This document shows, piece by piece, positions 1,649-51,956 of a DNA stretch of 64,000 bases (position 1 is its first letter; each line of letters starts with the position of its first letter). The DNA is from a virus (Duplodnaviria; Heunggongvirae; Uroviricota; Caudoviricetes). The position numbers were made by a program, and so were the translations under genes. The notes beneath the pieces were generated by a model. It saw nothing but the letters and a program-made list of their open reading frames with translations, did not search any database and was not told the DNA's origin. Location of the stretch: IMG/VR virus record IMGVR_UViG_3300028789_000005; one strand, given 5' to 3'.

Positions 1649-1743
1649 TAATCTTTAGGGCACTCGCGGGCTAACTGGTAATTTGCGCGGTTTTCATGTT
1701 CCGCCGTTCCCTGCCGCTAAACGCACCCTACATATATTATAGG

Positions 1744-1932: not shown

Positions 1933-1996
1933 GCCGCCATCCACCACGCGGTGCACCCAACCACCAGCGCCGAACCCCACACTACAATGGACCGTA

Positions 1997-2725: not shown

Positions 2726-2738
2726 ACGTACTCCTGCA

Positions 2739-3020: not shown

Positions 3021-3221
3021 GGGATAGCTACGCCTCAGGATGAACTCGGGCTGTTAGGACTCGGGGTATACCGCCCGGTCACGGTATCTAAGATCGAGCC
3101 GCCCTGGCTCCATCTAGACCACTCTCTAAGCAAACCACCCTACCCACTCTTCTATCCTTGTTGTTGATCTAATTCTAAACTAACCAGCGACGTAGCGGGG
3201 AGCTAAAGTGACCGTCTGCTA

Positions 3222-3525: not shown

Positions 3526-3624
3526 TTTACTCTTGCGGCCGCTTTGACCTTAAAACCTAGTCACGCTTCTACATAAAATATATACTTGCGTTAACACTAA
3601 TTGGAATCGGAGGACGACCAATAT

Positions 3625-18155: not shown

Positions 18156-18357
18156 ACGACCGCAGGAGCAGTACGTCGACATCGTCGTAGCCGCGTTGTC
18201 GGCGGCCTACGGTCCTAGGTACGAGGGCGGTTTCGCGCCGGTCACCGCCGCAATGGAGCGCTGGGCCTGCCAGAAGTGCGGCTCCGTGGTGGTCGACAAG
18301 GAGTCGCACGGGAGGTGGCATCGTGAGATGGCCGTGGTTTCATCAACGACTTACTAG
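18148..18357 (+). CDS. hypothetical small protein
   Basis: ORF track; overlaps the previous gene end by 8 nt. Confidence 0.4.
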   Translation: MPRRPQEQYVDIVVAALSAAYGPRYEGGFAPVTAAMERWACQKCGSVVVDKESHGRWHREMAVVSSTTY

Positions 18358-20124: not shown

Positions 20125-22413
20125 ATGACTGTAAAGACTAAGAAAGTGACGCAGACCGACCTGGACTTCACCGTGTTCAGTCGCGCGGTGGCCGCCCAGT
20201 TCCAGCGCATGAGCGCGCATCCGCTGTTCCGCGCATCAACCAGCAAGGACGATATGTGGGCCATATACCAGGCCGCTTGGCCGGAGGGCACCAACGAGAT
20301 CTTCCGCGAGCGGCGGGAGCATGATTGCCAGAAGTGCAAGCACTTCATCCGAGCGGTCGGCGGCGTCGTGGCCGTGATCGACGGCGAGCTTGTCAGTATT
20401 TGGGACGCGGAGATGCCCGAGCCGTACGCCACGGTGGCTGCGGCCATGTCGCGCTACGTGGAATCTTGCGCCATCGACAACGTGTTCCTCACGTCGGAGC
20501 GCACGGCGGGGGTGGCGAAGAATTTTCAGCAGGTCATAACTGCCCTAGAGTTCCAAGACTCATTCGCGAAGGCTTCGGCTACACCGCTAAAGAGCGAACG
20601 CGTGATCGAGTGGAACCACTTCAGCGTCGCCATCCCGGACCGCTTCGTCGTCTCGAAGAAGGACATCGGGCCGAAACTGGCCGACGCCCGCGCCACGCAC
20701 GACGTTCTGCTGCGCGGACTGCAGGAGCTCACGCTGGACTCGGTCGACACGGTGCTCGAGTTGATTGCGCAGAACTCGCTCTACCGTGGGGAGGAGTATA
20801 AGCATTCGTTGCAGACGTTCCGGGCGTTGAAGGTGAAGTTCGACGCCGTGAGTCCTGCCATGCAGCTTTCTCTGAATAACCGAGCGGCAGCGGATGAAGT
20901 GCTGAACGAACGACGCGACCAGTTCGCGTGGCTCCACGCCCAGGCCGCGCACCCGACAGCGAGTCGGATTCGCAACACGGCCATTGGCACGCTGCTGATC
21001 GACCTGTCGGCCGGGATCGAGCTCGAGGACGCCGTCAAGAAGTTCGAGACGTCCGTCATGGCCCCATCCAATTACAAGCGGCCCACGGCGCTGGTTTCCA
21101 AGGCCATGATCGAGAAGGCGCGCGTGAAAATCGACGAGCTGGGGCTGGCGTCGGCTTTGGAGCGTCGCTACGCCGTCATAGACGACATCACGGTGAACAA
21201 TATCCTGTTCGCCGACCGATCGGCCAAGGTGCTGAGGGGCCAGCGCGGCGGTGGTAAGACGGCCGAGAGCGCGTTCGCGGAACTGGCGGAGAAGATCCCC
21301 GAGGACGTCAAGAAGCTGGACCGCGTGGAGGAGATCGGCATCGAGAAGTTCCTCAAGGACGTGCTTCCGAAGGCGACCTCGCTGGAGGTTCTGTTTGAGA
21401 ACAAGCACGCCGGGAACCTCGTCAGCCTTATCGCGCCAGTCGACCCCACGGCTAAGAACCTGTTCAAGTGGCCCAACAAGTTCTCCTGGTCGTACGCGGG
21501 GGACGTGGCGGACTCCATCAAGGAGCGCGTCAAGCGCGCCGGAGGAAGCGTAGTCGGCGACCTTTGCTGCCGGCTGGCCTGGGACTACACGGACGACCTG
21601 GATTTCCACATGATTGAGCCAGCTGGCGCGGGGCGTGGAAGAGGCGGTTTCGGCACCGGTAGCACGCATATCTTCTACGGCAACGTACGCAGGCCGTCTG
21701 CCAGCGGAGGCATTCTGGACCTGGACGCCAACGGTTGCGACGGCCTGAAGGCTGAACCAGCGGAGAACATCTTCTACGCCGACAAGGCCAACATGGCGGA
21801 GGGCGTGTACGAGCTGACGGTAAACAACTACTCGCGACGCTCGACCGGAAGTGGATTCGAGGCGCAGGTGGAGTTTGGCGGCGTCACGCACAACTTCGTC
21901 TACGAGAAGGCGCTGCGCACCGGAGAGACGGTAAGCGTAGCCAAGGTGAAGTACAGCCATGCGGCTGGGTTCGAGATTATCGAGTCGTTGCCGTCGACGC
22001 AAACCTCCAAGGAGGTTTGGGGTATGCAGACGCAGACCTTTCGCAAGGCGAACGTGGTCATGCTGTCGCCGAATTGGTGGGATGGCTACGCGCCTGGCAC
22101 CGCGACGTTCGAATCACTCGGAGACGTGGAAGCTGACGAGCGGGTGGCGAAGGCGTTCGGTATCGGCAACAAGCACTACTTCTTCATGCTGGAGGGCTGC
22201 GCCAACGAGGGCAAGGCTCGCGGCTACTACAATGAATTCTTGCGCGCGGACCTGGAACCGCACCGCAAGGTCATGGAGATGGTGGGGGCCAAGATGCGCA
22301 CGGACGAGGCCGCGCACCAGTTGTCTGGCTTAGGCTTCTCGTCTACACAGAGGGCTGAGCTAACCGTGCGGGTCGGCGGAACGTTCAGCCGTGTCGTAAA
22401 GGTGGTGTTCTAG
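20125..22413 (+). CDS. large hypothetical protein (762 aa) with a Walker A-like GQRGGGKT motif
   Basis: ORF track; AGGAGAAATGAA upstream. No confident family assignment. Notable segments: GDLCCRLAWDYTDDLDFHMIEPAG and DLDANGCDG. Confidence 0.6.
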   Translation: MTVKTKKVTQTDLDFTVFSRAVAAQFQRMSAHPLFRASTSKDDMWAIYQAAWPEGTNEIFRERREHDCQKCKHFIRAVGGVVAVIDGELVSIWDAEMPEPYATVAAAMSRYVESCAIDNVFLTSERTAGVAKNFQQVITALEFQDSFAKASATPLKSERVIEWNHFSVAIPDRFVVSKKDIGPKLADARATHDVLLRGLQELTLDSVDTVLELIAQNSLYRGEEYKHSLQTFRALKVKFDAVSPAMQLSLNNRAAADEVLNERRDQFAWLHAQAAHPTASRIRNTAIGTLLIDLSAGIELEDAVKKFETSVMAPSNYKRPTALVSKAMIEKARVKIDELGLASALERRYAVIDDITVNNILFADRSAKVLRGQRGGGKTAESAFAELAEKIPEDVKKLDRVEEIGIEKFLKDVLPKATSLEVLFENKHAGNLVSLIAPVDPTAKNLFKWPNKFSWSYAGDVADSIKERVKRAGGSVVGDLCCRLAWDYTDDLDFHMIEPAGAGRGRGGFGTGSTHIFYGNVRRPSASGGILDLDANGCDGLKAEPAENIFYADKANMAEGVYELTVNNYSRRSTGSGFEAQVEFGGVTHNFVYEKALRTGETVSVAKVKYSHAAGFEIIESLPSTQTSKEVWGMQTQTFRKANVVMLSPNWWDGYAPGTATFESLGDVEADERVAKAFGIGNKHYFFMLEGCANEGKARGYYNEFLRADLEPHRKVMEMVGAKMRTDEAAHQLSGLGFSSTQRAELTVRVGGTFSRVVKVVF

Positions 22414-24099: not shown

Positions 24100-24452
24100 G
24101 CTTGAAAAGCGTGCGGTACTGCGACGAATGCGGAGCGGCCAAGACCATCGCCAACCATTGGTGGGCCGTCTCCAACACGGCGGAAGCGCCTCTGTTCATG
24201 ACCTCCAAGAGCGCCGACAAGCTGCTGCACAAGGACGCGTTCCGGCTGGATTACTGCAGCTACACCTGCGTCGGCACGGTGTTCAACCGCTGGCTGGACA
24301 CTGGCTCCGTCGTCAAGAAGAAGCCGCGCCCGATCAAGGCGGTGGCCGTTGCCAAGGCGATAGAACCCGAACTCGACGAGACAGAGGAAGAGTACGCTCG
24401 GTTGCTTACACCGTCAGAGGTAGAAAAGGAAGCGTATGCAGCTGTTTATTGA
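24096..24452 (+). CDS. hypothetical protein with N-terminal CxxC pair
   Basis: ORF track 24051..24452 trimmed to ATG 24096 (ATGA overlap). Confidence 0.45.
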   Translation: MSLKSVRYCDECGAAKTIANHWWAVSNTAEAPLFMTSKSADKLLHKDAFRLDYCSYTCVGTVFNRWLDTGSVVKKKPRPIKAVAVAKAIEPELDETEEEYARLLTPSEVEKEAYAAVY

Positions 24453-24906
24453 TTGTGACGGTGTGTTAGCGGACTTCGATCAATACTTCATCGACCACTA
24501 CGGACGACATCCGACACTGGTGGAGGAAGAGCACGGCAGTAAACGACTGTGGCAAGATCTGCAGGACCATGAAGATTACTACTTCAAGCTGCCGCTCATG
24601 CCGGACGCCATGGAGCTGTACGATAGCGTCAAGCATCTGAATCCGATCATTCTGACTGGAAGACCAGCAAGCGGACTATGGGCCGTGGATCAAAAGATTC
24701 GTTGGACGGCCAAGCATTTTCCAGGCGTACCGACCATCGTCTGTCTATCGCGTGACAAGTGCCATCACATGACCGCGCCTGGAGACATACTCGTGGATGA
24801 TCGGGTGAAGTACGCACCATTTTGGACTGACGCTGGCGGAGTGTTCGTTCATCACAAGTCGGCGGAAGCGACGATTGTTACACTAGAGAGGCTGGGTTTG
24901 CTGTGA
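24436..24906 (+). CDS. HAD-superfamily 5'(3')-deoxyribonucleotidase-like protein
   Basis: ORF track. The N-terminal FIDCDGVLADF is HAD motif I (DxDGVLxDF), as in NT5C-type deoxynucleotidases. Confidence 0.6.
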   Translation: MQLFIDCDGVLADFDQYFIDHYGRHPTLVEEEHGSKRLWQDLQDHEDYYFKLPLMPDAMELYDSVKHLNPIILTGRPASGLWAVDQKIRWTAKHFPGVPTIVCLSRDKCHHMTAPGDILVDDRVKYAPFWTDAGGVFVHHKSAEATIVTLERLGLL

Positions 24907-31405: not shown

Positions 31406-31624
31406 ATGAGAGAACATTTCTGCGAAGACTGTCGAGACGAACGAATTCAGTTGAATCATCTGGTCGGTCAGCGAATCACAAAGGCGCAGGTCAACTGCGA
31501 TGGACCCGGTACCTACACGTTTGAATTTGAAGATGGTACCGTACTTAGCATTACGTCGTCAGGTAGCGATCTTACTACTACCGATGCAACGTTCACGATA
31601 CCAAAACACACCAAGAAAATGTAG
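31406..31624 (+). CDS. hypothetical small protein with N-terminal CxxC
   Basis: ORF track 31400..31624 trimmed to ATG 31406, with CTAAGGAATTGCTA upstream. Confidence 0.4.
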   Translation: MREHFCEDCRDERIQLNHLVGQRITKAQVNCDGPGTYTFEFEDGTVLSITSSGSDLTTTDATFTIPKHTKKM

Positions 31625-31637
31625 TGCAAGGAGCATT

Positions 31638-32549
31638 ATGGATTTCGCAACAATCGCAATGTACGTGGGACTGGGCGTTCTAGCCATCATAGTCCTGAGC
31701 ATATTCTTCGGGTCGTTCTACACGGTGCCTACGCAGGAAGCGGCTGTAGTAGCGCGCTTCGGCAAGTTCAGTCACATCGCACGGCCAGGGCTCAACTTCA
31801 AGCGGCCATTCGTGGACTCTGTCGAGTTAGTTAGGCTGGCCACGTACCAGCTAGACGACACCATTGAGACGAAGACCAAGGACAACGTGTTCGTCACGCT
31901 GCCGGTGTCCTGCCAGTGGCAGGTGGGTAGTTCGGATCAAGCCATCCAGGACTATCATTACAAGCTAACCAACAACGAGCAGATCAGCTCCTACCTGTCC
32001 AACATCCTGTTGGGACACATTCCGGACATGGACCTGGACACACTCTTCACGTCGCAGCAGCAGGTATCGGACAAGGCGTCGGCAGAACTTGAACTACAGA
32101 TGTCCAAGTTCGGTGTCGAAATCACCAAAGTAATGATCACTGACATCCAACCGGACGCCGGAGTGGTCAAGGCCATGAACAGTATCAACGAGCAGACCCG
32201 GCTGGCCGTGGCTAATAAGGCACAAGGTGACGCGGAGTATATACTCAAGGTGCGGCAGGCTGAGGCTGATGCCGAGGTCAAGCGCCAAGAAGGTTTGGGC
32301 GTGGCTAACGAGCGTAAGGCCATCGCTGACGGGTGGGCTGACTCGATCGACAAGATAAAGGGCAGTACCGACCTGTCGGATAACGACGCTACGTTCCTGC
32401 TGCTGTTCACCAACTGGACCGACATGATGCAGAAGGTCGGCGGCTCTGACAACACCACCATGGTCTTTATGCCCTCTGGACCGGAGGGCTTGCAGAACTT
32501 CCAGGCGACGATGGCCAACGCGCAGTTGCATATGCTGGCGGCGAAGTGA
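31638..32549 (+). CDS. SPFH/band-7 (stomatin/prohibitin/HflC-like) membrane protein
   Basis: ORF track 31500..32549 trimmed to ATG 31638, with CAAGGAGCATT upstream. N-terminal TM segment, then the SPFH core VPTQEAAVVARFGKFSHIARPGLNFKRPFVDSVELV and a coiled coil. Confidence 0.65.
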   Translation: MDFATIAMYVGLGVLAIIVLSIFFGSFYTVPTQEAAVVARFGKFSHIARPGLNFKRPFVDSVELVRLATYQLDDTIETKTKDNVFVTLPVSCQWQVGSSDQAIQDYHYKLTNNEQISSYLSNILLGHIPDMDLDTLFTSQQQVSDKASAELELQMSKFGVEITKVMITDIQPDAGVVKAMNSINEQTRLAVANKAQGDAEYILKVRQAEADAEVKRQEGLGVANERKAIADGWADSIDKIKGSTDLSDNDATFLLLFTNWTDMMQKVGGSDNTTMVFMPSGPEGLQNFQATMANAQLHMLAAK

Positions 32550-33768: not shown

Positions 33769-33873
33769 ATGAAACTGATCTTACTGATCCCGCGCATCTT
33801 CCTCATCATTTGTTTGATTCCTTTTGCGTTGGTTTTTGGCCCTGCACTATTTACGAAGCGGAGATTGTTTTGA
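33769..33873 (+). CDS. 34-aa hydrophobic peptide (MKLILLIPRIFLIICLIPFALVFGPALFTKRRLF)
   Basis: ATG preceded by AAAGGAGTACT; its stop overlaps a TTG at 33870 (TTGA). Below the ORF-track cutoff. Confidence 0.25.
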   Translation: MKLILLIPRIFLIICLIPFALVFGPALFTKRRLF

Positions 33874-34301
33874 TTCTATCGCGGCAAGATCTTATGAAGT
33901 ACGTAGAGCGGGGTGCGCTACGGTTCGAGCCAGCATTGGCTGACGATCAGTTTCAGCAAAACGGCATTGACATGATTGTGAGTCAGGTGGAGAGCGACTT
34001 GTTGGCCGCAGGTGGATTCACGTTAGGTCGTACGCGCGAGATTATAACCATGCCTGACGACCTTATGGCGTTCGTGCAAATACGGTCCACTTGGGCGCGT
34101 ATGGGCTTCATCATGCCACCGACTGTGATAGACGCTGGCTTCCAGGGCAGTATCACCCTGGAGATAGCCAAGTTCGGCGCGCCGGGTTACGTGCCTGTTG
34201 GACAGCGATTCGCCCACGTCATCTTCGCGAAGCTTACCAGCGCCACCGAGCCTTATCGCGGCAAGTACCAGGGCCAAGTGGCCATTACGGGGGCGCTGTA
34301 G
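33870..34301 (+). CDS. dCTP deaminase/dUTPase-superfamily protein (Dcd-like)
   Basis: ORF track 33543..34301 trimmed to TTG 33870, with an alternative ATG at 33894. FIMPPTVIDAGFQGSITLEIAKFG matches the IDPG(F/W)xGxIxLE core of dCTP deaminase/dUTPase trimers. Confidence 0.55.
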   Translation: MILSRQDLMKYVERGALRFEPALADDQFQQNGIDMIVSQVESDLLAAGGFTLGRTREIITMPDDLMAFVQIRSTWARMGFIMPPTVIDAGFQGSITLEIAKFGAPGYVPVGQRFAHVIFAKLTSATEPYRGKYQGQVAITGAL

Positions 34302-44524: not shown

Positions 44525-44680
44525 ATGCCACAGTCCATGCAACAGAAGCGCAAGAACTCCCTCGAACTTCTCAAGTCAGCACTCATCAGCCGCATCGCGC
44601 AGGAAGAGTTCAAGAAGGCTGAGAACCTCGCCCGCATGATCCAGTTCACCGAAGCCGCCATCGCGAAGGGTGGACGCTAA
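44525..44680 (+). CDS. hypothetical 51-aa helical protein
   Basis: ATG preceded by CTAAGGAGAAACAAA. Below the ORF-track cutoff. Confidence 0.35.
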   Translation: MPQSMQQKRKNSLELLKSALISRIAQEEFKKAENLARMIQFTEAAIAKGGR

Positions 44681-44681
44681 C

Positions 44682-46241
44682 ATGGCAAAGTCAATCCTGA
44701 AGAACATCAAGGCAGCACCGAGCGCGAAAGCTGTCAAGGCTGTTGGCAAGAAGTTGATCAAGACGGCTAAGGGCGAAACAGTCGTAGCCACGCACGACAT
44801 CCACAATAAGTCGCTCGCTCCCACCGCGCCCGTAACGCCGCTGACTCAGGCGTTCGTCAAGGCCGGATTCGTATACAGCCGCACTGAGGAGGTAGATAAC
44901 AATACCGCTCATGGCTATACACGCGAAGACGGTGCGGCGCTTCTATTCACGCACGCTGGCAGTTCGTCCAGCATCAACACCGCGTGGCAGGTGAAGTTTG
45001 CGGACGGCTCCACGGCTGAAGGCAAGAACGCTCAGCAATTCGTAAAGACCATGTACGACGCTAAGGGACCGGCTCCGTTACCTAGCAACGTCGTGGCCGC
45101 GCTGGACGCGCTACGTAAGCTGACGGCTGGCAAGTATCGCATCAGCGATCTGGCTGGCGACGCCAACTACAAGGCGCGCGTGCAGCTTCTGAAGCTGCTA
45201 CGTAAGACTGACAAGGTACTGGTCAAGGAGAGCGGCGTCAACAAAGTGCTGACCGAGTTCTACGTCGCGCTCGGCATCGCGAAGTCGTCCGTGGCCGGTA
45301 TGGAGTCGGCATTCAGCGCGAAGTGCATGGAGCTCGCGAAGAGTGCCAGCAAGACGGAGCGCGCGGTAGCGAAGGTAGAGAAGGCTGTAATCGCTGACGA
45401 GCTTCGGAAGACGGTACACACCCGCGTCGTATTCGATGGCAAGCCGATCCTGGACGCGCCCAAGAAGATGAACAAGAAGCAAGAAGCCAAGGACAGCGCC
45501 GATTTCAAGCTGGAACTGGCGGCACGAGTCAAGCGTGCGGAGCGCGAAACGGCGAACATGCCAATGGCGCAGCCGAAGTCGGATGCTGATATCTACGTCA
45601 ACCTGGACGAGATATTCCTGCTGGAAGATCCCAATAATGGTATCGTTTTGCTACAGTTGGAAAAACCCAATTCGCAGGGCGCGATTTGCGTGTATAATAA
45701 CGGGAGTCGCGTTGCTGCCGGAGTAGTACCGACAGAAGTTCTGAGAACACTGCGTCAGATCACAAGTAGCGATCTAGTGAGAGACGTAAATCAGTTACTA
45801 CACCCCATTACGGCTGGAGTTGTAGTTTCGTCCGTGGCTGAACGCCACCTTACAGCGGTGTTAGATCACTGCAAGGAGAACATCATGACCACTGCAACCG
45901 TTGAAACCAAGAAGCAGAAATTCGCACCTCCCGCTGGAACAGCCAAGAAGACCGCGAAGAACGCTGTCACGACCAAGGTCAAGGCAACCGTAACCAAGAA
46001 GGCCGACAAGGCACCGCGCGCCGCAGCCGCCGATCGCAAGATCAAGGCGTTAGTAACGTTGAAGTCGGAGTCGTTGCCCCGCGAAGGCAGCTTCTGCTAC
46101 GGTCAAGTTGAGGCCATCATCGGCTCCAAGACCGTGAGCGAGGCTCAGGCCAAGCTGGACAAGTCCAAGCTGAATCCCAGCGGTCGCAAGCTGGAAGTGG
46201 CGTGGCTGGTGAAGCAGGGCTACCTGTCCGTCATCGAGTAG
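44682..46241 (+). CDS. hypothetical protein with histone H1-like Lys/Ala-rich N- and C-terminal segments
   Basis: ORF track 44670..46241, start placed at ATG 44682, two nt after the previous stop. KAVKAVGKKLIKTAK at the N-terminus and TKKQKFAPPAGTAKKTAKNAVTTKVKATVTKKADKAPRAAAADRKIKA near the C-terminus. Confidence 0.55.
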   Translation: MAKSILKNIKAAPSAKAVKAVGKKLIKTAKGETVVATHDIHNKSLAPTAPVTPLTQAFVKAGFVYSRTEEVDNNTAHGYTREDGAALLFTHAGSSSSINTAWQVKFADGSTAEGKNAQQFVKTMYDAKGPAPLPSNVVAALDALRKLTAGKYRISDLAGDANYKARVQLLKLLRKTDKVLVKESGVNKVLTEFYVALGIAKSSVAGMESAFSAKCMELAKSASKTERAVAKVEKAVIADELRKTVHTRVVFDGKPILDAPKKMNKKQEAKDSADFKLELAARVKRAERETANMPMAQPKSDADIYVNLDEIFLLEDPNNGIVLLQLEKPNSQGAICVYNNGSRVAAGVVPTEVLRTLRQITSSDLVRDVNQLLHPITAGVVVSSVAERHLTAVLDHCKENIMTTATVETKKQKFAPPAGTAKKTAKNAVTTKVKATVTKKADKAPRAAAADRKIKALVTLKSESLPREGSFCYGQVEAIIGSKTVSEAQAKLDKSKLNPSGRKLEVAWLVKQGYLSVIE

Positions 46242-46502: not shown

Positions 46503-46535
46503 ACCACTACAGATAGCCTGAACACGAAGAGTATG

Positions 46536-46567
46536 AGACGCCCAGAACATCGGGCGTCTTTGTATTT
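46536..46567 (+). terminator. rho-independent terminator-like hairpin (AGACGCCC-loop8-GGGCGTCT followed by TTGTATTT)
   Basis: Seen directly; an alternative overlapping hairpin GGCGTCT...AGACGCC (about 46553-46587) could form instead. Confidence 0.5.
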
Positions 46568-46588: not shown

Positions 46589-47512
46589 TTGCCACGTAAG
46601 AGGAGAACGATCCTGAAAAACCTAACACTCATCATCCCCACGCACGGTCGTGTTAACAAGCAGATAACGCTCCAGGCGCTGCCGACTGCGCTCCAGGCCG
46701 AGGTCATCCTCGTGGCTTCGTTGCCTGACGAAGCCAAGGCGCTGAAGAAGCTGTACCCGGCTAACCAAGTGCTTACAGCCAAGGGCACTACATCCATCGC
46801 TACGAAGCGTCACTGGATTATGAAGAACGTAGCCGGCAAGTTTCTATTTATGATGGACGACGACCTGGCGTTCTTCGAGCGCTGCCCGGCTAAGTGGCGC
46901 GTGTGGGAGGAGCATCGCAAGGCGTACGCCGTAGCTCCGGACGCACCGGCTGGAACCTCGCTGATGATGCGTCGCTATCCTAAGGACAAGGTCCTCTTGA
47001 AGCTATTCCAGGAGATGGATTCCTACGCTGGTAAAGAGCACGACCTCGGTATGATCGGCATCGCGCATCGGCGTCACTCTGACAAGAAGAAAGCGGCGTG
47101 GGAGAAGAACGCAAGGATGATGTATGCTTTCGGTGTCAACCGAGAGCTCTATCTCAAAGAGAAGATTCGCTTCGACGCCATAGGTCTGCGCGAGGACTTC
47201 CACGTGGTGTTGTCCATGTTGCGTAAAGGCCATGAGTGCCACAACTACGTCGAGCTACTCAACAACGAGTACGGCACATTCGGCGCGGCGGGAGGGTGCA
47301 GCGGCGAGCGCAGTATGGAGTACAGCGACGCCCAGTGCTTCGAGTTGGCCAAGCTACACCCCGGCTTCGTGAAGGTGGTGGACCGCGCGTACACCACGAC
47401 GGCTGTGCGTAAGGAGGTCGTGGTAGCCTGGAAGAAGGCTTACCTCTCCTCTCTGGCTCAGCCCAAGGTTCCAAGCGTACGGAAGGCAGCAAAGAAAGCG
47501 GTGACGGCATGA
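46589..47512 (+). CDS. GT-A fold (GT2-like) glycosyltransferase
   Basis: ORF track; TTG start with no clear RBS, so the start is uncertain. LTLIIPTHGR resembles the GT2 N-terminal IIPT(Y/H)N. FLFMMDDDLAFF gives a DxD/DDD motif about 90 aa downstream. No TM segments. Confidence 0.5.
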   Translation: MPRKRRTILKNLTLIIPTHGRVNKQITLQALPTALQAEVILVASLPDEAKALKKLYPANQVLTAKGTTSIATKRHWIMKNVAGKFLFMMDDDLAFFERCPAKWRVWEEHRKAYAVAPDAPAGTSLMMRRYPKDKVLLKLFQEMDSYAGKEHDLGMIGIAHRRHSDKKKAAWEKNARMMYAFGVNRELYLKEKIRFDAIGLREDFHVVLSMLRKGHECHNYVELLNNEYGTFGAAGGCSGERSMEYSDAQCFELAKLHPGFVKVVDRAYTTTAVRKEVVVAWKKAYLSSLAQPKVPSVRKAAKKAVTA

Positions 47513-47676
47513 AGTGCGAAAATTGCAAGAAGAAGTGTGCGAATCGGTTCTGTAACCTTGGCTGCTTCAACCGGTGGGTGCGGCGTGGTAATCGCAAACT
47601 GGTGGAGGACGCGCACAAGAGCGGCACGGAGGATTACCGCGTCGTCGTACGGAAGATGATGGGAGGCACGGCGTGA
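47509..47676 (+). CDS. 55-aa Cys-rich mini-protein (MKCENCKKKCANRFCNLGCFNRW...)
   Basis: ATGA overlap with the GT gene and GTGA overlap with the next gene. Below the ORF-track cutoff. Confidence 0.35.
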   Translation: MKCENCKKKCANRFCNLGCFNRWVRRGNRKLVEDAHKSGTEDYRVVVRKMMGGTA

Positions 47677-48410
47677 TCATTCACCACAAGATTCAGCGCA
47701 ACAGCGGAGCAGCCCTAGAGCCGTGTATCTATAAGAGTGGCCATGGTGTGCCGACGCAAGGCGCTAAGATGCGCGCCTATCCGGACGTATTTGTGCCGGT
47801 GCTAGGTATAACGACTGGCGGCTACGTCATGCCGGTAATGGGCGAACCATCGCCGGTACTGGACCTGCCGTTGGCGCTGGCCCGGTTGGCTGCTTTATGG
47901 GACCTGCCGGTGGCGCATGTCTACGATTATGAGGGCCGCCGTCGCCACCACGTAGTCCAAGTAGAGCCGTTCACTCGCACAGAAGGCTTTCCGCCTATTA
48001 TCCGGTCGGCGCTGACGACGTGGTACGAACGAATTGGTAGTACGCAAAGCAAAGGAGCACAGGTCGTACATGGTGATCCCACCCTGGAGAACTACGTACG
48101 CGACGGTTATTGGCTAGACCCTAGTACGCGTCCATTGCCACAAGAGGCCGAGCTTGACGGCGGCAAGCTGCTGCAGTCGTACTTCCACTACGGTCGCCCT
48201 TGCCTGGAGTCGGAACGTTACATGATACGTAAGTTCTTGGTCGAGCAAAAATTGAACCTGGACCTCTGTATCTACTACATGCTGACGCACATCATTCGGC
48301 TGTATGGTGTGCAGCCGCAGGCGCGTGTATGGGCCATTGACGTCGTATCGGGCCTGCGTAATTTGGCGGAAGAACTTCGCACGGAAATGAGAGTGGATGC
48401 ATGCAAGTAG
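47673..48410 (+). CDS. APH/choline-kinase-like phosphotransferase (possible anomeric sugar kinase)
   Basis: ORF track; GTG start. VHGDPTLENYVRDGYWLDPS resembles the HGDxxxxN...D catalytic loop of the aminoglycoside/choline/sugar kinase fold. Confidence 0.45.
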   Translation: MIIHHKIQRNSGAALEPCIYKSGHGVPTQGAKMRAYPDVFVPVLGITTGGYVMPVMGEPSPVLDLPLALARLAALWDLPVAHVYDYEGRRRHHVVQVEPFTRTEGFPPIIRSALTTWYERIGSTQSKGAQVVHGDPTLENYVRDGYWLDPSTRPLPQEAELDGGKLLQSYFHYGRPCLESERYMIRKFLVEQKLNLDLCIYYMLTHIIRLYGVQPQARVWAIDVVSGLRNLAEELRTEMRVDACK

Positions 48411-49120
48411 TTATTCTGGCGGCAGGACGCGGTGAACGATTTGTCAGTAACGGGGTAATGACGCCTAAACCGCTGCTCCCAGCGCGCGGTCGCACGATGA
48501 TACAGCATGCGCTGGTCCAGGCGTCTGAAATCATCAAGACGCCTGTCGTTGTGTGCTTGGTGGATTTGTACAGTGAGCTTCACAAGCAAACGCCGAAGAA
48601 CATGCATCCGATCCGCGTGCCCATTCGGTTCGTGCAGAAGGGTGCGGCCATGTCTTTGTTGGCGGCGTCAGGTGTGATTCGCGATACCGATCCGGTGCTG
48701 GTCATGGACTGTGACACCATCTTCAAGAGTGGTGTGCTTGCTAAGTTCTCTGAGTTTAGTGAGGCTTGCTTCAAGTCTGGCGTGCAGTCTTCTATGCTGT
48801 GCTTCCGTCCTAAGGATGACAGCGAGCGCTACAGTTTCGTTATCATGAAGGATCACTTAGTGACGCAGGTGGTGGAGAAGCAGCGCATAAGCGGTATTGC
48901 TTCTTGCGGCGTTCATGCATTCCAGTCGTGGGAGCTTGCCAAGCGCGCCATCTACGAGATGGTGATTCTCAGTACGATGACTAACGGTGAGTACTATCTG
49001 GCACCGTGCCACAACAATTTGCAGTTGACCACGGCCATGGTGATCGCAGCCGATGAATTCAACCACGTAGGCACACCGGCTGAACTGGAGGCGTATGAGC
49101 AAGCAGTTCCCAAGGCTTGA
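48401..49120 (+). CDS. sugar-1-phosphate nucleotidyltransferase (NTP_transferase family)
   Basis: ORF track. The N-terminal VVILAAGRGERF matches the (L)AGGxGTRL nucleotide-binding signature of sugar nucleotidyltransferases; about 240 aa, like MurU/RmlA-type enzymes. Confidence 0.6.
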   Translation: MQVVILAAGRGERFVSNGVMTPKPLLPARGRTMIQHALVQASEIIKTPVVVCLVDLYSELHKQTPKNMHPIRVPIRFVQKGAAMSLLAASGVIRDTDPVLVMDCDTIFKSGVLAKFSEFSEACFKSGVQSSMLCFRPKDDSERYSFVIMKDHLVTQVVEKQRISGIASCGVHAFQSWELAKRAIYEMVILSTMTNGEYYLAPCHNNLQLTTAMVIAADEFNHVGTPAELEAYEQAVPKA

Positions 49121-49967
49121 AGAGTTCGTGTACTTCGTGAACGAGCGTTGGTCCATACATCAGAAGCGATTGGCTGGGAAGCCTGCTCCGTGGACGAAGG
49201 ATCCTATCCTGTTGGAATACCGCTTTACCAACGTACGTCGCGAAGACGACAGGGTCACTAAGTGTATACACGAAAACTGGTTACAGCCGCACGCGGAGGA
49301 CTACGACACGGTAGTCTTCGCAATGGCGCTGGCACGGTTGGTGAACTTGCCGGCGAGCCTGGAAGCGCTCGGTTATCCATCAAAATGGAATCCGAAGCGG
49401 TTTGTGAAGCTGATGGAGGCGCGCAAGAAGGACGGCATGGCGACGTTCACAGGGGCATACATGATAAACGCCGTCGGTGCTACCAAAGGACAGTCCAAGG
49501 CGTCGTACTTGGCCGACCAGGTGCTTGGGCCGTTGTGGAACAGCCGTAAGCTGCTAGGTAACTTGGTGCGTACCGGGTGTGAGCTTAGTACGTTGCAAGA
49601 AGCGCTCATGTTACATCACGGCTTCGGAGGTGGGTTCATGAGTGCGCAGGTCGTGGCGGATATTAAGCACCTGCCTTCTATGAAGAAGGCTGAAGACTGG
49701 ATGACGTTCGCAATGTCAGGGCCAGGAAGTCGTAGAGGGTTAAACTGGCTCGTGGGAAGAGAACCAACTGCGCGCTGGAACGAAGAGGAATGGCATGCTA
49801 CGCTGCTGGATTTGATGAAGGTAGCTCAGCCAAAGTTGAAATGCCCAGTGTTGGATGCGCAGAATCTACAGAACTGTCTGTGTGAATTCAGCAAATACTG
49901 CAAGGTGAAGTACAACGGCGGCAGAGCGAAGCAGAAGTTCCGCGCCAGCGGCGAAGCTTATAATTAA
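49095..49967 (+). CDS. conserved hypothetical protein embedded in the sugar/nucleotide module
   Basis: ORF track; overlaps the nucleotidyltransferase gene end by 26 nt. No family recognised. Confidence 0.5.
   Translation: MSKQFPRLEEFVYFVNERWSIHQKRLAGKPAPWTKDPILLEYRFTNVRREDDRVTKCIHENWLQPHAEDYDTVVFAMALARLVNLPASLEALGYPSKWNPKRFVKLMEARKKDGMATFTGAYMINAVGATKGQSKASYLADQVLGPLWNSRKLLGNLVRTGCELSTLQEALMLHHGFGGGFMSAQVVADIKHLPSMKKAEDWMTFAMSGPGSRRGLNWLVGREPTARWNEEEWHATLLDLMKVAQPKLKCPVLDAQNLQNCLCEFSKYCKVKYNGGRAKQKFRASGEAYN
49959..49964 (+). promoter_or_regulatory. promoter-like -10 box (agCTTATAATt) 29 nt upstream of ATG 49993
   Basis: gYTATAAT motif family; AAAGGAAG RBS before the ATG. Confidence 0.35.
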
Positions 49968-49992
49968 CCCATAGCAGCGAAAGGAAGTGAAG

Positions 49993-51084
49993 ATGTACAG
50001 TTACAAAGCTAGAGACGTAAATGAGGCGCTTTCACTTGGACTACAGCATTTGTTACACAGTGGAATCAAAGAGGACTCCAGAGTAGGTCCAGTGCTAGTA
50101 GCGCCAGGGCCGGTGTGTATCGAGTATACCGACCCAAGGCAGCGAGTGCTGTATTCACCAACGCGCGATGCGAACCACGTATTCCATGTGATGGAGGCGT
50201 TGTGGTTTTTCTCGGGGAGCAACGAACTGGAGTTTCCGGTTTTCTTTAATGCCTCATACTCGCAGTTTTCAGATGATGGCAAGACTATGTGGGACTCTTA
50301 CGGATGGCGCTGGCGAGAATTCTTCGGCTATGACCAGCTCGATGCCATAGTGGAGGAGCTCAAGTCGAATCCGGGAAGCAGGCGCTGCGTATTGGCGATG
50401 TGGAACGCTGATATTGCGCCAAGCGCCCCGCAATGGGAGGCGAAAAGTGGCGTACAGTACAGCGATGATCTTGGCGTTGCGTGCAACGGTGGTAAAGCCG
50501 TTCCGTGCAACACGCACGCTTACTTCGCCATACGAGCCGGCAAGCTGAACATGACCGTCATGAACCGCAGCAACGACAGTATGTGGGGCGCATTCGGCGC
50601 GAACGCGGTCCACTTCAGCTTCCTGTTGGAGTACATGGCGATGCGTATCGGTGTGCCGATGGGCAGTTACTATCAGTTCACGAACAATCTGCATACGTAT
50701 ACCGACAAGTTCAGTATTGACAAGCTGAACGCCATTGAATACGAGTGCGTTACGCTCGATCAGTTGGAACCTCTTGGACCCTCTATCACAGAAGGATTCG
50801 ACGACGACCTGAAGCTGTTCATGCCGTGGGCGCTGAAGGTGATACGTGCCACCCCACCGCCGGCAACGTTCCCGTCAGACGTATTACCAGAAGCTACGCA
50901 GCTTGCAGCGAACGTCCCCGCCTGCAAGACGCCATTCTTCCATGCGGTAGCCATTCCGATGTTCCTGTTCTGGGTGTTCCGAAAGTGGAAGGATGAATAC
51001 AGCAGCAACACTTGCCTCGATGGCATTGACGCGCCGGACTGGAAGCGCGCGTGCTACGAGTGGAAAGAACGGAGGCGGAAGTGA
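49993..51084 (+). CDS. thymidylate synthase (ThyA)-family enzyme with extended C-terminus: thymidylate synthase or dUMP hydroxymethylase
   Basis: ORF track 49987..51084, start placed at ATG 49993 after AAAGGAAG. RRCVLAMWNADIAP, AVPCNTHAYF (catalytic Cys), NRSNDSMWGAFGANAVHFSFLLEYMA and QFTNNLHTY align with the ThyA motifs RR..L.AWN, PCH..FQF, RSxDxxLGxPFNIASYALL and GDxHxY. An Asn is retained at the PFN position that sets dUMP specificity in ThyA. The ~100-aa C-terminal extension is not found in classical ThyA. Confidence 0.65.
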   Translation: MYSYKARDVNEALSLGLQHLLHSGIKEDSRVGPVLVAPGPVCIEYTDPRQRVLYSPTRDANHVFHVMEALWFFSGSNELEFPVFFNASYSQFSDDGKTMWDSYGWRWREFFGYDQLDAIVEELKSNPGSRRCVLAMWNADIAPSAPQWEAKSGVQYSDDLGVACNGGKAVPCNTHAYFAIRAGKLNMTVMNRSNDSMWGAFGANAVHFSFLLEYMAMRIGVPMGSYYQFTNNLHTYTDKFSIDKLNAIEYECVTLDQLEPLGPSITEGFDDDLKLFMPWALKVIRATPPPATFPSDVLPEATQLAANVPACKTPFFHAVAIPMFLFWVFRKWKDEYSSNTCLDGIDAPDWKRACYEWKERRRK

Positions 51085-51659
51085 AAGAACTCCTGCAATT
51101 CATTTACGAGGGCGGTAGTGTAATTCGCTACCACGCACGTCCAGGCTTACGCACAGACACCGATGCGTCACACTCGTTCGGCGTTGCTCTTTGGTGCAGT
51201 TTACTGGCCGGCAAAGATGCCGAGGGTCGTACGCAAGCCAGCGCCATGTTGCTTATGGCAGCGCTAACGCATGATCTGGCCGAGCAAGCAGCGTCAGACA
51301 TCAGCGCTCCAGCCAAGCGCATGATGGGCCTGTCTGACCTAGTCCATGACTGGGAGCAGAAGACGCTGCGTAAGTACGACCTGGATTATGAGCAATGGTT
51401 GGATCCGGAGGAGTTGCTCATCCTTAAGCTGGCTGACTGCTTTGATGGTCTGCTGTATTGCTGCCGTGAGCTTGCCTTAGGTAACAAGAACGTCATGCTG
51501 ATCTGGAAGCGATTCTGTTCATACATCGAAACACTCACGGTAAATACGGAAGTACCCTTGGACATCGCGCTGCGCGCCTCTAACATGTACGAAGCTATAA
51601 AGGAGATCTATCGTGAAACCCGTAGTGAAGCAGGTCCGGAATTCAACGTCTTCGAGTAG
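51051..51659 (+). CDS. HD-domain 5'-deoxynucleotidase (YfbR-like)
   Basis: ORF track; start uncertain, with a GTG at about 51081 just before the ThyA-like stop. VIRYHARPGLRTDTDASHSFGVALW...AALTHDLAEQAASDISAP matches the YfbR pattern (R.......ESVAEHS...A...LLHD.PE). Confidence 0.6.
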   Translation: MLRVERTEAEVKELLQFIYEGGSVIRYHARPGLRTDTDASHSFGVALWCSLLAGKDAEGRTQASAMLLMAALTHDLAEQAASDISAPAKRMMGLSDLVHDWEQKTLRKYDLDYEQWLDPEELLILKLADCFDGLLYCCRELALGNKNVMLIWKRFCSYIETLTVNTEVPLDIALRASNMYEAIKEIYRETRSEAGPEFNVFE

Positions 51660-51897
51660 CAAGGCTAACGATACGCAGGTAGGAGGTAGTCACTATCAAG
51701 AGGCGTCGGCGGTGTGTCCTCACTGTCATAAAATTATTCAGCACTGGGATCTGTATGCCAAGATGCCATACTTGGTTGGACAGGTGGCCAAGTACACATT
51801 ACGCTTCCTCGGTAAGAACGGCCTGGAAGACCTGAAGAAAGCACAGCACTTCCTACAGAAGCTGATCGAAGTGTACTATCCGGATGAGAAGTCTTAA
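51613..51897 (+). CDS. hypothetical protein with CPHC pair (GGSHYQEASAVCPHCHKIIQHWDLYAK)
   Basis: ORF track; GTG start overlapping the HD gene by 46 nt, so the start is uncertain. Confidence 0.35.
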   Translation: MKPVVKQVRNSTSSSSKANDTQVGGSHYQEASAVCPHCHKIIQHWDLYAKMPYLVGQVAKYTLRFLGKNGLEDLKKAQHFLQKLIEVYYPDEKS

Positions 51898-51904
51898 ACG
51901 ACAA

Positions 51905-51956
51905 AAGACCCGGCTGGCTGGCACTCGATGTTCTGAGTACCAGCCAGCCGGGTCTT
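51905..51956. terminator. bidirectional terminator: 17-bp perfect stem AAGACCCGGCTGGCTGG / CCAGCCAGCCGGGTCTT with 18-nt loop
   Basis: Seen directly between the convergent gene ends at 51897 (+) and 51963 (-). A U-rich tract follows on the minus-strand transcript (TTTTGTCGTTT). Confidence 0.55.

Follow-up and report, generated by a model that had tools for sequence, protein, structure and literature searches.

Eight overlapping or abutting ORFs lie between two hairpins in the window, i.e. the whole 64-kb stretch of viral DNA analysed, from a genome of about 100 kb (Table 1). A preliminary description had reported a block of six genes. All six ORFs were found on the plus strand at the coordinates claimed, as were both flanking hairpins and the motifs quoted for the glycosyltransferase (GT), the kinase and the nucleotidyltransferase, but the block also holds a Cys-rich ORF and a DUF3310 gene. 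The DUF3310 gene has 45–71% identity in relatives and, because it is conserved with the module, the operon ends at 51897 and not at 51659. DUF3310 domains are frequently fused to phage nucleotide kinases, and the PHROG matches of the protein sit within “nucleotide kinase” families. The Cys-rich ORF shows no conservation in relatives and is probably outside the core module. Since at least eight related contigs preserve the order of the module genes, with 41–76% amino-acid identity for the GT, kinase and nucleotidyltransferase, the module exceeds what chance would produce.

Table 1. Features of the operon, its borders and two accessory genes.
Feature	Position	Strand	Basis and remarks
NT5C-family HAD phosphatase, accessory gene	24436..24906	+	phrog_2643 5e-28; Pfam NT5C 1e-8
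dCTP-deaminase/dUTPase-like accessory gene	33870..34301	+	Pfam DCD PF22769 2e-20; dUTPase 5e-6
Terminator-like hairpin, 5´ operon border, closes upstream gene	46535..46560	+	9-bp stem, 6 GC pairs, then T-rich tail
GT-A glycosyltransferase, TAGT family	46589..47512	+	Pfam PF20691 55.3 bits (cutoff 27.5); phrog_842 3e-43
Cys-rich ORF, 55 aa	47509..47676	+	4-nt overlap on each side
Compact APH/ChoK-fold kinase, 245 aa	47673..48410	+	HGDPTLEN, WLDPS
Sugar-1-phosphate nucleotidyltransferase, 239 aa	48401..49120	+	NTP_transf_3 7e-14, NTP_transferase 3e-10, both above cutoff
PF18723 protein (“HMUDK_hel”, formerly aGPT-Pplase clade 1)	49095..49967	+	Pfam 2e-41
Thymidylate-synthase-superfamily enzyme, predicted dUMP hydroxymethylase (dUMP to 5-hmdUMP)	49993..51084	+	Thymidylat_synt 6e-18
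YfbR-like HD phosphohydrolase	51051..51659	+	Pfam YfbR-like 6e-9, HD_3; start codon uncertain
DUF3310 protein, final operon gene	51613..51897	+	Pfam 2e-7
Bidirectional terminator hairpin between operon and convergent lysis/tail genes	51907..51954	.	20-bp stem, 14 GC pairs, T-run

ATG 49993 is the most likely start of the homologue of thymidylate synthase (TS), as first proposed, because its homologues begin MYSF; residues are numbered here on the 365-aa version from GTG 49987. Its C-terminal extension had been put at ~100 aa but comprises ~120 aa, and is common to YuA gp17 and phiRSL1 ORF230; identity to YuA gp17 (37%) runs over the full length, extension included. In the homology ranking, YuA/M6 (38%), SPO1 gp29 (37%, 3e-32) and ViI (33%) come first, whereas identity to the td thymidylate synthases of T-even phages is no more than 24% (about 1e-5), and the best solved relative is the hydroxymethylase MilA, not a TS. 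No cutoff of the NCBIfam TS equivalogs was reached. Cys174 corresponds to Ec C146, Asn206 to N177, Asp197 to D169, and Ala171 stands at L143; the last three positions are diagnostic (PMC13326640). Asp occupies the N177 position in all dCMP-using enzymes and Asn the D169 position in 5-hydroxy-dCMP synthases. The L143 position is Asp in most hydroxymethylases, one close relative included, and carries no bulky residue here. The enzyme has PCN instead of PCH and SDDG instead of WDEW, and has lost the TS residues His147 and Trp80/83 together with the C-terminal tail. Alignment and profile searches place it nearest to dUMP hydroxymethylases, with no clustering among TSs, and the residues suggest that the modified pyrimidine is most likely uracil (hmU), not cytosine.

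The HD phosphohydrolase (28% identity to YuA gp18), whose gene position is equally occupied in YuA, PaMx11, PhiJL001 and all relatives, is predicted to clear dTMP/dTTP, the canonical thymidine nucleotides, or else a related dNMP. The gene at 33870 is dCTP-deaminase-like, as originally annotated, and its product is predicted to supply dUMP. The supposed HAD 5´-nucleotidase at 24436 is an NT5C-family HAD phosphatase, but its substrate may be a sugar bisphosphate instead of a dNMP; it is 42% identical to an orthologue (L014:5091-5621) located inside the module, between the TAGT and kinase genes.

By profile the GT is a member of the DNA-base glycosyltransferase family (TAGT, phrog_842) and not of the cell-envelope families, with which it does not cluster. 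The PHROG is that of the T6 enzyme, beta-glucosyl-HMC-alpha-glucosyltransferase. The protein carries LIIPTHGR and a DDD at residues 90–92, is soluble, with no TM segment found, and is 37% identical to phiRSL1 ORF237. Its TTG start is uncertain, homology beginning at about residue 9. Its predicted reaction is the transfer of sugar from an NDP-sugar donor to 5-hmdU in the DNA of the phage. T6 provides the characterised member of TAGT, which attaches a second sugar to glucosyl-hmC; for the present enzyme we infer direct transfer to hmU.

The HGDPTLEN and WLDPS motifs of the kinase are invariant throughout its family, and in every relative the kinase gene overlaps the neighbouring nucleotidyltransferase gene by 10 nt. 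Based on its modelled fold, the kinase is predicted to be an anomeric kinase acting on a sugar or sugar-phosphate, and the nucleotidyltransferase (motif ILAAGRGERF) would supply the NDP-sugar donor. The top NCBIfam matches of the latter are GlmU-type (2e-18) and MurU (2e-9), all under the equivalog cutoffs. It is 30% identical to phiRSL1 ORF235, both being in phrog_3980, and phiRSL1 encodes both activities, its ORF236 having an APH domain. In a polysaccharide locus, a cellular homologue has genes for an APH kinase and a HAD phosphatase as neighbours. By structure, the kinase model matched RB69 ORF052c and phage proteins (441 and 521 aa) that bear NTP- or guanylyl-transferase annotations. RB69 ORF052c, similar in fold to the present kinase, forms the kinase part of a nucleotidyltransferase-kinase fusion making NDP-arabinose for DNA glycosylation; RB69 gp52:53, like HY126 AfhE, combines kinase and UDP-arabinose pyrophosphorylase activities and serves that process. 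The fusion evidence stems from other phages, since here each of the two enzymes has a gene of its own. APH-fold kinases also have choline, aminoglycosides, steroids and fructosamines among their substrates, and neither sequence nor fold specifies those of the present kinase and nucleotidyltransferase.

The 290-aa protein previously listed as unknown turned out to belong to a known family, PF18723, which is associated with thymidine hypermodification. Its fold is that of helix-hairpin-helix DNA glycosylases and is AADT-like, with an invariant Cys. The alignment to AADT catalytic residues is below statistical significance, and Gln/Asn occupy the positions of the AADT metal ligands, which are needed for phosphate departure (PMC13458397). 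PF18723 stays with the hydroxymethylase whichever tailoring genes are present, and it is predicted to act on hmU in DNA.

The strongest evidence for a DNA hypermodification module is a cassette swap in a syntenic sister phage (L015), where a GATase-ADDT fusion, a P-loop 5-hmdU DNA kinase (HMUDK) and an acetyltransferase fill the slot of the GT, kinase and nucleotidyltransferase. The flanks are 40–61% identical to those described here, with the exception of the HD gene (27%). The canonical thymidine-hypermodification cassette of P-loop kinase, amino-acid:DNA transferase and acetyltransferase is thus replaced in the present phage; no HMUDK or ADDT homologues were found in the window, and GT-type IMG/VR contigs are absent among HMUDK carriers. 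Three cultured phages that are unrelated, phiRSL1, PhiJL001 and LuckyBarnes, also hold the triad of TAGT, PF18723 and hydroxymethylase, and no HMUDK or ADDT was detected near it there. A metagenome survey found GT-A statistically associated with ThyS and APH. The combination had been called not described as such; this holds in that the parallel clusters are uncharacterised, but such clusters do exist, and the metagenomic association was on record.

We consider it probable, from gene content, that the operon directs pre- and post-replicative hypermodification yielding O-glycosylated 5-hydroxymethyluracil DNA via a phage-made activated sugar. The core of the preliminary description, an NDP-sugar made by the phage and used to glycosylate a hydroxymethyl-pyrimidine in its own DNA, is supported by the GT family, the ranking of the TS homologue, the cassette swap and the RB69 kinase match. 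As residues and homology suggest, the Dcd-like enzyme would feed dUMP, the TS homologue would turn it into 5-hmdUMP, thymidine nucleotides would be drained by the HD phosphohydrolase, perhaps together with the NT5C-like enzyme, and the family-A polymerase of the phage would incorporate 5-hmdUTP into its DNA. Fold, gene pairing and the RB69/HY126 precedent point to a second step in which the APH-fold kinase would place a phosphate on C1 of a sugar or sugar-phosphate, and the nucleotidyltransferase would make an NDP-sugar from the sugar-1-phosphate. Finally, going by family membership and the cassette swap, the TAGT enzyme would link the sugar to double-stranded phage DNA at the hydroxymethyl groups of hmU, shielding the DNA against host nucleases. 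PF18723, a conserved core member outside the tailoring cassette, would be a base-flipping, Cys-dependent enzyme and fold kin of amino-acid:DNA transferases. Most likely it processes hmU in DNA with no dependence on the sugar chemistry, e.g. by turning non-glycosylated hmU into thymine, which is the weakest part of the model.

The retention of PF18723 in GT-type clusters, which lack the P-loop kinase that abuts it in YuA and PaMx11, would also fit an APH-fold kinase that is a non-orthologous stand-in for HMUDK and phosphorylates hmU in DNA. PF18723, given its AADT-like fold and Cys, would then act on 5-PmdU, appending a nucleophile or yielding thymine, while the GT would use a host NDP-sugar and the nucleotidyltransferase would have a side role. 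No member of the kinase family has been characterised, and a nucleotide pyrophosphohydrolase is joined to the kinase in one relative. This arrangement is nevertheless improbable. PF18723 probably needs no kinase, because none was found among the neighbouring genes scanned in PhiJL001 and LuckyBarnes, which hold the triad; moreover, its Gln/Asn residues replace the phosphate-departure ligands. The kinase always accompanies the nucleotidyltransferase, both are gone together with the GT in L015, and its nearest viral structural kin are sugar-pathway kinases fused to nucleotidyltransferases. It is likewise unlikely that the GT uses a host NDP-sugar such as UDP-glucose on hmU, as in T4, with the kinase and nucleotidyltransferase making another activated compound (a LicA/LicC-type CDP-alcohol or a second sugar) for further decoration or a non-DNA target. 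GTs alone do suffice in PhiJL001 and LuckyBarnes, but the only transferase gene in the operon encodes an NDP-sugar-using DxD GT-A, Pfam/PHROG profile searches found no LicD-like or second transferase, and GT, kinase and nucleotidyltransferase are gained or lost as one.

Glycosylated hmU is also preferred over a modified cytosine such as the glycosyl-5-hmC or glycosyl-5-hydroxy-C of T-even/RB69-like phages, which we regard as very unlikely although TAGT has been characterised on cytosine derivatives only. MilA is a CMP hydroxymethylase and is the best match of 5-hydroxy-dCMP synthases too, yet Asn206 and Asp197 differ from the residues of the cytosine enzymes, the nearest relatives are dUMP hydroxymethylases from hmU phages, and in L015 the enzyme has a 5-hmdU DNA kinase as its partner. 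The dCTP-deaminase-like enzyme, moreover, would destroy the dCTP pool feeding a cytosine pathway. Hardly any weight attaches to a set of ordinary genes, in which a true thymidylate synthase, the label given by Pfam and PHROG, accompanies a GT and NDP-sugar genes that modify a host polysaccharide or virion protein (serotype conversion, capsid glycosylation). The polysaccharide locus of the distant cellular nucleotidyltransferase homologue would suit it, but it was already disfavoured by the failed TS equivalogs, the DNA-base family of the soluble GT and the canonical DNA-modification cassette in the sister-phage slot; the missing TS-specific residues and the presence of PF18723 in the operon also speak against it.

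We found no report of glycosyl-hmU from any phage in the literature, and its presence in phage DNA is a computational prediction from genomes only. In trypanosomes, glycosylated hmU occurs as base J; the operon described here is predicted to be the bacterial-virus counterpart of that system.

The putative modification module lies at the 3´ end of a long plus-strand block for replication and nucleotide metabolism, which upstream codes for a primase, an ATP-dependent ligase, a family-A DNA polymerase, an exonuclease and a SNF2-type helicase; downstream of the module, the minus strand carries convergent genes for lysis and tail proteins. Eight closely packed ORFs are found between a hairpin at 46535-46560 and a bidirectional hairpin with a 20-bp stem at 51907-51954. 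The preliminary description had counted six genes between the two hairpins; these are present, but the 55-aa ORF and the DUF3310 gene bring the number to eight. Every motif quoted there was recovered from the module ORFs, and the two outlying genes to which it drew attention, one dCTP-deaminase-like and one coding for an NT5C-family HAD phosphatase, are real. Module proteins were found on contigs of up to ~100-102 kb, from which we estimate that the window holds some two thirds of the genome. The 55-aa ORF (MKCENCKKKCANRFCNLGCF...) precisely spans the gap between the glycosyltransferase and kinase genes and is unmatched in related loci; at the equivalent position, one of the compared loci (L003) carries a 63-aa ORF unrelated to it.

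Coordinates of the operon ORFs and of two genes outside the operon
Feature	Position	Strand	Basis or remark
Glycosyltransferase	46589-47512	+	TAGT PF20691, phrog_842
55-aa Cys-rich ORF	47509-47676	+	4-nt overlap on each side, with the glycosyltransferase and kinase genes
Kinase	47673-48410	+	APH/ChoK fold from structure prediction
Nucleotidyltransferase	48401-49120	+	PF12804, PF00483
PF18723 protein	49095-49967	+	Pfam profile
TS homologue	49993-51084	+	hydroxymethylase homology
HD protein	51051-51659	+	YfbR-like
DUF3310 protein	51613-51897	+	Pfam; last operon ORF
dCTP-deaminase-like gene	33870-34301	+	outside operon
NT5C-family HAD phosphatase	24436-24906	+	outside operon

The order of the module is conserved in at least eight related contigs, and the glycosyltransferase, kinase and nucleotidyltransferase encoded there are 41-76% identical to those of the window. 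A sister phage represented by a 105-kb contig (L015) has flanks syntenic with the window, with identities of 55% for the DUF2786 protein, 40% for the large Lys/Ala-rich protein, 52% for the PF18723 protein, 58% for the TS homologue, 27% for the HD protein, 51% for the DUF3310 protein and 61% for the first minus-strand gene. The glycosyltransferase, kinase and nucleotidyltransferase are absent from its locus, and their slot is taken by a GATase-ADDT fusion, a P-loop 5-hmdU DNA kinase (HMUDK_HMUD1), a small ORF and an acetyltransferase. Genes of this type are experimentally established tools of thymidine hypermodification (PMC8989533). Viewed as a natural experiment, the swap suggests that the PF18723 protein, the hydroxymethylase, the HD protein and the DUF3310 protein form a constant core producing DNA with 5-hydroxymethyluracil (hmU), and that the glycosyltransferase, kinase and nucleotidyltransferase form an exchangeable tailoring cassette that would act on the same substrate as the cassette of L015. 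The hmU core, which is also common to YuA and PaMx11, would then be a platform on which sister phages exchange tailoring modules.

A search by tblastn with the kinases and amino-acid:DNA transferases (AADTs) of YuA, PaMx11 and L015 gave no match in the 64-kb window (~36 kb of the genome lie outside it), and the window carries no homologues of P-loop kinase (PF18748), ADDT (PF18724), PLP, radical-SAM, FAD or Nmad5 genes. The sole Walker A motif among the plus-strand ORFs of 3-52 kb, GQRGGGKT, occurs in an unrelated 762-aa protein (20125-22413, +). This protein falls in phrog_1735 (2e-242), a family of unknown function, and has no Pfam domain. When IMG/VR was scanned for relatives of the P-loop kinase, the 80 carriers listed included the L015-type phage, and the near-complete contigs with the glycosyltransferase cassette were not among them.

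The closest relatives of the TS homologue in phage genomes are the M6/YuA-like enzymes, and the identity of 37-38% extends across the whole protein with its C-terminal extension. By homology it ranks nearer the dUMP hydroxymethylases than the thymidylate synthases: SPO1 gp29, the classical dUMP hydroxymethylase, is 37% identical (3e-32) and the enzymes of ViI-like phages 33%, compared with just 24% (E ~5e-6) for the T-even td thymidylate synthases. Its best solved relative is MilA, a CMP hydroxymethylase.

An ordinary thymidylate synthase, which the preliminary description had kept as an alternative, would share the catalytic Cys174 (C146 of E. coli ThyA) and the phosphate-binding Arg194/Ser195 (R166/S167), which are invariant in reference alignment A2. 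This assignment was nevertheless rejected, because the NCBIfam thymidylate synthase equivalogs stay under their cutoffs (67.5 bits against 174.55 for the top model, the remaining models being lower), PCN stands for PCH (His147) and SDDG for WDEW (Trp80/Trp83), and the folate-closing C-terminal tail of ThyA is replaced by an unrelated 120-aa C-terminus. No second TS-family gene was found in the 64-kb window. Residue criteria for the base have been published, by which Asn at ThyA-N177 denotes uracil and not cytosine, Asn at D169 denotes a 5-hydroxy-dCMP synthase, and a non-bulky, usually acidic residue at L143 admits water to the exocyclic methylene (PMC13326640). The TS homologue has Asn206 in the first of these columns, where the dCMP hydroxymethylase T4 gp42 has Asp, and Asp197 in the second, where 5-hydroxy-dCMP synthases carry Asn; dCMP hydroxymethylase and 5-hydroxy-dCMP synthase were rejected on these grounds. 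The L143 column, positioned by counting back from the Cys, holds Ala in the TS homologue (Ala171) and in two compared loci (L003 and L004), and Asp in a third (L002) and in YuA, phiRSL1, SPO1, ViI and T4 gp42. The TS homologue is thus predicted to be a dUMP hydroxymethylase rather than a thymidylate synthase, and the hydroxymethyl-pyrimidine originally proposed can be narrowed to hmU from Asn206, Asp197 and the homology ranking.

The kinase yielded nothing useful in sequence searches of Pfam, PHROGs, NCBIfam and PDB, with no Pfam match at E <= 0.1, APH (PF01636) included, and its fold is apparent from structure prediction only. The model has a bilobal eukaryotic-like kinase fold in which a metal-binding Asp follows the HxDxxxxN catalytic loop. 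The protein is a member of a compact family of its own, with ~280 clusters and no Pfam model. In a library of viral structure models, the top match is a phage ‘aminoglycoside phosphotransferase’, and the next are a 441-aa myovirus ‘NTP transferase’, RB69 ORF052c (Foldseek probability 1.0, E = 1.5e-3, query-normalised TM-score 0.51) and a 521-aa phage ‘guanylyltransferase’. ORF052c forms the C-terminal kinase domain within a single 561-residue RB69 protein, ORF53_52c (PMC6024577), described as a bifunctional nucleotidyltransferase-kinase (PMC13326640). ORF53_52c provides both a Rosetta-stone fusion and a functional precedent within phage DNA glycosylation. The evidence for fusion is confined to the fold search of viral models and the literature on RB69: all 33 nucleotidyltransferase homologues are standalone, and among the 150 listed of ~280 kinase-family representatives none is fused to a nucleotidyltransferase and one to MazG. 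P0244 (362 aa), a remote member of the kinase family, carries a fused PRA-PH/MazG-like NTP pyrophosphohydrolase domain, which hints that some members of the family may act in nucleotide rather than sugar metabolism.

The nucleotidyltransferase matches PF12804 (52.8 against 27) and PF00483 (40.7 against 21.2) and has LAAGRGERF at residues 6-14. The NCBIfam equivalogs stay far under their cutoffs (Arch_glmU 66.7 against 292 bits, MurU 37.7 against 250 bits), so that none of them (GlmU, MurU, RmlA, HddC etc.) names the sugar; the enzyme appears to be of a generic sugar-1-phosphate type, for which GlmU-type and MurU models score highest. Its gene overlaps that of the kinase by 10 nt and the two always travel together, and a distant cellular homologue is found in a polysaccharide locus, where its neighbours are a HAD phosphatase and an APH-family kinase. 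Taken with the viral fold matches and the RB69 precedent, these observations predict by analogy that the pair supplies an NDP-sugar. The pathway built on a bifunctional kinase/NDP-arabinose pyrophosphorylase (RB69 gp52:53, HY126 AfhE/AfhF) has as companions an arabinose-5-phosphate isomerase (SIS) and the HAD phosphatase AfhF, which takes off the distal phosphate (PMC13326640). No SIS isomerase domain was seen among the window ORFs scanned. An NT5C-like HAD phosphatase 42% identical to that of the window lies between the glycosyltransferase and kinase genes in another compared locus (L014:5091-5621). This opens a second reading for the phosphatase of the window: instead of a dNMP nucleotidase, it may be the enzyme that removes a phosphate from a sugar bisphosphate on the way to the NDP-sugar.

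The glycosyltransferase passes the gathering score of Pfam family TAGT (PF20691; 55.3 bits against 27.5), short for ‘TET-associated glycosyltransferase’, and matches phrog_842 (3e-43), the PHROG of the T-even beta-glucosyl-HMC alpha-glucosyltransferase. Iyer et al. reportedly defined TAGT, and also aGPT-Pplase, in 2013. DDD at residues 90-92 corresponds to the DxD of GT-A enzymes. The possibility raised earlier that the enzyme decorates the host envelope or the virion was rejected, since it is soluble (the maximum hydropathy over 19 residues is 1.34, i.e., there is no hydrophobic segment) and belongs to a family of DNA-base glycosyltransferases. Gene context supports a predicted transfer of sugar to 5-hydroxymethylpyrimidine, or to its sugar, in DNA. 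Comparative genomics, through the cassette swap, the TAGT assignment, the RB69 precedent and a gene triad recurring in cultured phages, supports the initial interpretation that an NDP-sugar is made and used to glycosylate a hydroxymethyl-pyrimidine. On balance, we consider it probable that the phage makes O-glycosyl-hmU with its own sugar-nucleotide supply.

A different order of events can be drawn from the lack of the usual P-loop kinase in clusters of this type. The APH-fold kinase would phosphorylate hmU in DNA and the nucleotidyltransferase would nucleotidylate the product to a DNA-bound NDP ester, from which the GT-A enzyme or the PF18723 protein would displace NDP with a nucleophile. This ester would be an activated ‘pyrophosphoryl’ intermediate comparable to one once postulated for phiW-14. 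If true, a glycosyltransferase-like enzyme would use DNA as an NDP-activated donor; we regard this as very improbable.

Whatever the tailoring chemistry, PF18723 neighbours the hydroxymethylase, and the cassette swap singles it out as a tailoring-independent enzyme. The assignment to PF18723 (HMUDK_hel / aGPT-Pplase clade 1) comes from a profile match, and the family has a helix-hairpin-helix glycosylase-like fold; a PDB sequence search with the protein gave no match. The Pfam name HMUDK_hel fits the glycosyltransferase clusters poorly, as these are without the P-loop kinase. The family has an invariant Cys263-Glu264 in QNCLCEF, a motif like ETILCKW around the catalytic Cys247 of gp46, with Gln/Asn where AADTs have the metal ligands Glu243/Thr244. 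Profile-profile alignment did not map the AADT catalytic residues to PF18723 significantly (0.2% with YuA gp10 alone, 3% with a three-sequence ADDT profile), and the likeness is at the level of the motif. The AADT reaction of M6 does not require the PF18723 protein in vitro. Bacillus phage records include 6 with a PF18723 relative and 88 with a TS-family relative (record counts), a gap which hints that plain-hmU phages may lack PF18723. As a guess, the protein could perform C6-thiol chemistry on hmU in DNA, independently of the sugar; it is likewise a guess that unglycosylated hmU might be converted to thymine, which would make PF18723 a candidate answer to an old question, namely how phages turn hmU in their DNA back into thymine. 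The family is not invariably clustered with a hydroxymethylase: at L016, a further compared locus, a PF18723 gene (L016:7001-7870; 45% to that of the window) adjoins a primase-polymerase gene, and no TS homologue, glycosyltransferase or kinase lies within 7 kb. At L014, the PF18723 and TS genes are separated by an inserted GIY-YIG/NUMOD3 homing endonuclease (L014:7915-8724).

The triad of TAGT, PF18723 and an SPO1-like hydroxymethylase also occurs in the Ralstonia jumbo phage phiRSL1 (ORF230-238), the Alphaproteobacteria phage PhiJL001 (gp19-25) and the Brevibacterium phage LuckyBarnes (gp38-41); the cluster genes that were scanned include neither a P-loop kinase nor an ADDT. Its presence in unrelated phages implies that the design is recurrent and horizontally spread. 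In addition, phiRSL1 has a nucleotidyltransferase of the same PHROG (30% to that of the window) and an APH-domain protein, ORF236, the N-terminus of which is not detectably that nucleotidyltransferase. PhiJL001 and LuckyBarnes differ from the window in having clusters without sugar-activation genes. From these comparisons, the kinase and nucleotidyltransferase pair is an optional add-on, found at least twice. In the phiRSL1 cluster (L001, 163-171.5 kb), the hydroxymethylase and PF18723 genes are accompanied by three TAGTs, a sulfotransferase and an APS kinase, which suggests an oligosaccharide on hmU, possibly sulfated. LuckyBarnes gp41 (L021:3448-5001) is a 517-aa TS homologue adjoining two TAGTs; its TS domain is limited to residues 13-239, and no Pfam family matches the long C-terminal remainder. 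The searchable literature holds no report on the DNA chemistry of the three phages, and the occurrence of the triad in cultured phages makes the prediction directly testable.

Several other features of the window may be mentioned. A 523-aa Lys/Ala-rich protein (44670-46241, +) falls in no Pfam or PHROG family. In every relative, L015 among them, a homologue of 570-678 aa directly precedes the tailoring cassette, and the protein could bind DNA as a partner of the modification enzymes. A SPFH/Band-7 protein (31500-32549, +; Pfam 4e-30), unusual in a phage, is encoded amid the replication genes. A 310-aa ORF (18323-19255, +) has weak, below-cutoff Pfam matches to YajC and the Lar restriction-alleviation protein and could provide an extra anti-restriction function. 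GC content falls to 0.47 at 2001-4000, compared with 0.51-0.62 elsewhere in the window, and near 3-4 kb the genes change from the minus to the plus strand; an early-region boundary, or a region resembling an origin, may lie within 1-4000. The exact products of the two end genes of the window had no database copies, and a sequence-tag search led to contigs of 7-9 kb only.

Hypermodification of its DNA determines which restriction, CRISPR and type IV defence systems are able to cut a phage, and the enzymes have served as reagents, as with the T4 glucosyltransferases in 5hmC mapping. To our knowledge, the sugar modifications of phage DNA are on cytosine derivatives, and hmU-derived hypermodifications carry amino-acid or polyamine side chains. 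Genome-wide glycosyl-hmU in a phage would, if true, join these two branches, and provide a prokaryotic route to base-J-like DNA and a glycosyltransferase that labels 5hmU.

The nearest known systems are those of M6/YuA, PaMx11 and ViI (Lee 2018, PMC5889632; Lee 2021, PMC8989533), which share with the window a dUMP hydroxymethylase (37-38%) with the same C-terminal extension, a PF18723 protein (33-34%), a YfbR-like HD protein and a DUF3310-like gene, in similar order and beside a family-A DNA polymerase module. Both in these phages and in our model, hmU arises before replication, and the tailoring follows on the DNA. The window differs in having a glycosyltransferase with an NDP-sugar supply and no HMUDK, AADT, PLP, radical-SAM or FAD enzyme, and its predicted product is an O-glycoside instead of an amino-acid-derived side chain. 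The arabinosyl-5-hydroxycytosine systems of RB69, DLP3 and HY126 (PMC6024577; PMC13326640) follow a shared logic, in which a TS-superfamily enzyme makes a hydroxylated pyrimidine dNMP, and an APH-like kinase and a MurU-like nucleotidyltransferase provide an NDP-sugar for DNA glycosyltransferases. However, the base in RB69/HY126 is cytosine (N177D, D169N, compared with Asn and Asp in the window), kinase and nucleotidyltransferase are fused (AfhE) and not encoded by two separate genes, and the glycosyltransferases are GT-B-like rather than GT-A/TAGT. The AmgK/MurU pair of MurNAc salvage, invoked in the preliminary description, likewise combines an APH-fold anomeric kinase with an NTP_transferase-fold uridylyltransferase; this order of folds is seen in the window, MurU models match the nucleotidyltransferase at 2e-9, and a MurU structure is among its PDB sequence matches. 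The resemblance is nevertheless one of logic and not of orthology, as the MurU equivalog stays far under its cutoff and no sequence similarity was detected between the kinase and AmgK-type APH models.

T-even phages, which make glucosyl-hydroxymethylcytosine, also combine a TS-family hydroxymethylase (gp42) with post-replicative DNA glycosylation by alpha/beta-GT and, in T2/T6, by the beta-glucosyl-HMC alpha-glucosyltransferase. The T6 enzyme shares its PHROG/TAGT family with the glycosyltransferase of the window. However, the base modified by T-even phages is cytosine (Asp at N177), the UDP-glucose comes from the host, and sugar-activation genes and PF18723 are both absent. The TET/5mYOX-TAGT clusters (Burke 2021, PMC8256090; Pyle 2023, bioRxiv 10.1101/2023.12.21.572611) share the glycosyltransferase family and a 5-hydroxymethylpyrimidine in DNA; there, 5hmC is made after replication from 5mC by a dioxygenase, and cytosine products alone have been demonstrated. 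Pfam and PHROG searches found no dioxygenase among the operon genes of the window. A metagenome survey noted that GT-A matches are often near ThyS and APH phosphotransferase genes. In product class, a sugar O-linked to 5-hmU in DNA, the prediction resembles base J of kinetoplastids, in which JBP1/2 dioxygenases make hmU after replication at ~1% of T and JGT glucosylates it from UDP-glucose. In the window, by contrast, hmU would be made as a nucleotide by the TS homologue, probably genome-wide, and be modified by another glycosyltransferase family from a phage-made donor. We found no glycosylated hmU from a phage in the searchable literature, although Iyer et al. 2013 may have predicted it, and every mention of glucosyl-hmU found concerns kinetoplastid base J or synthetic work. 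The predicted phage O-glycosyl-hmU would therefore be the first of its kind, while each of its enzyme classes and the overall logic have precedent in T-even phages, RB69/HY126 and the TET-TAGT clusters.
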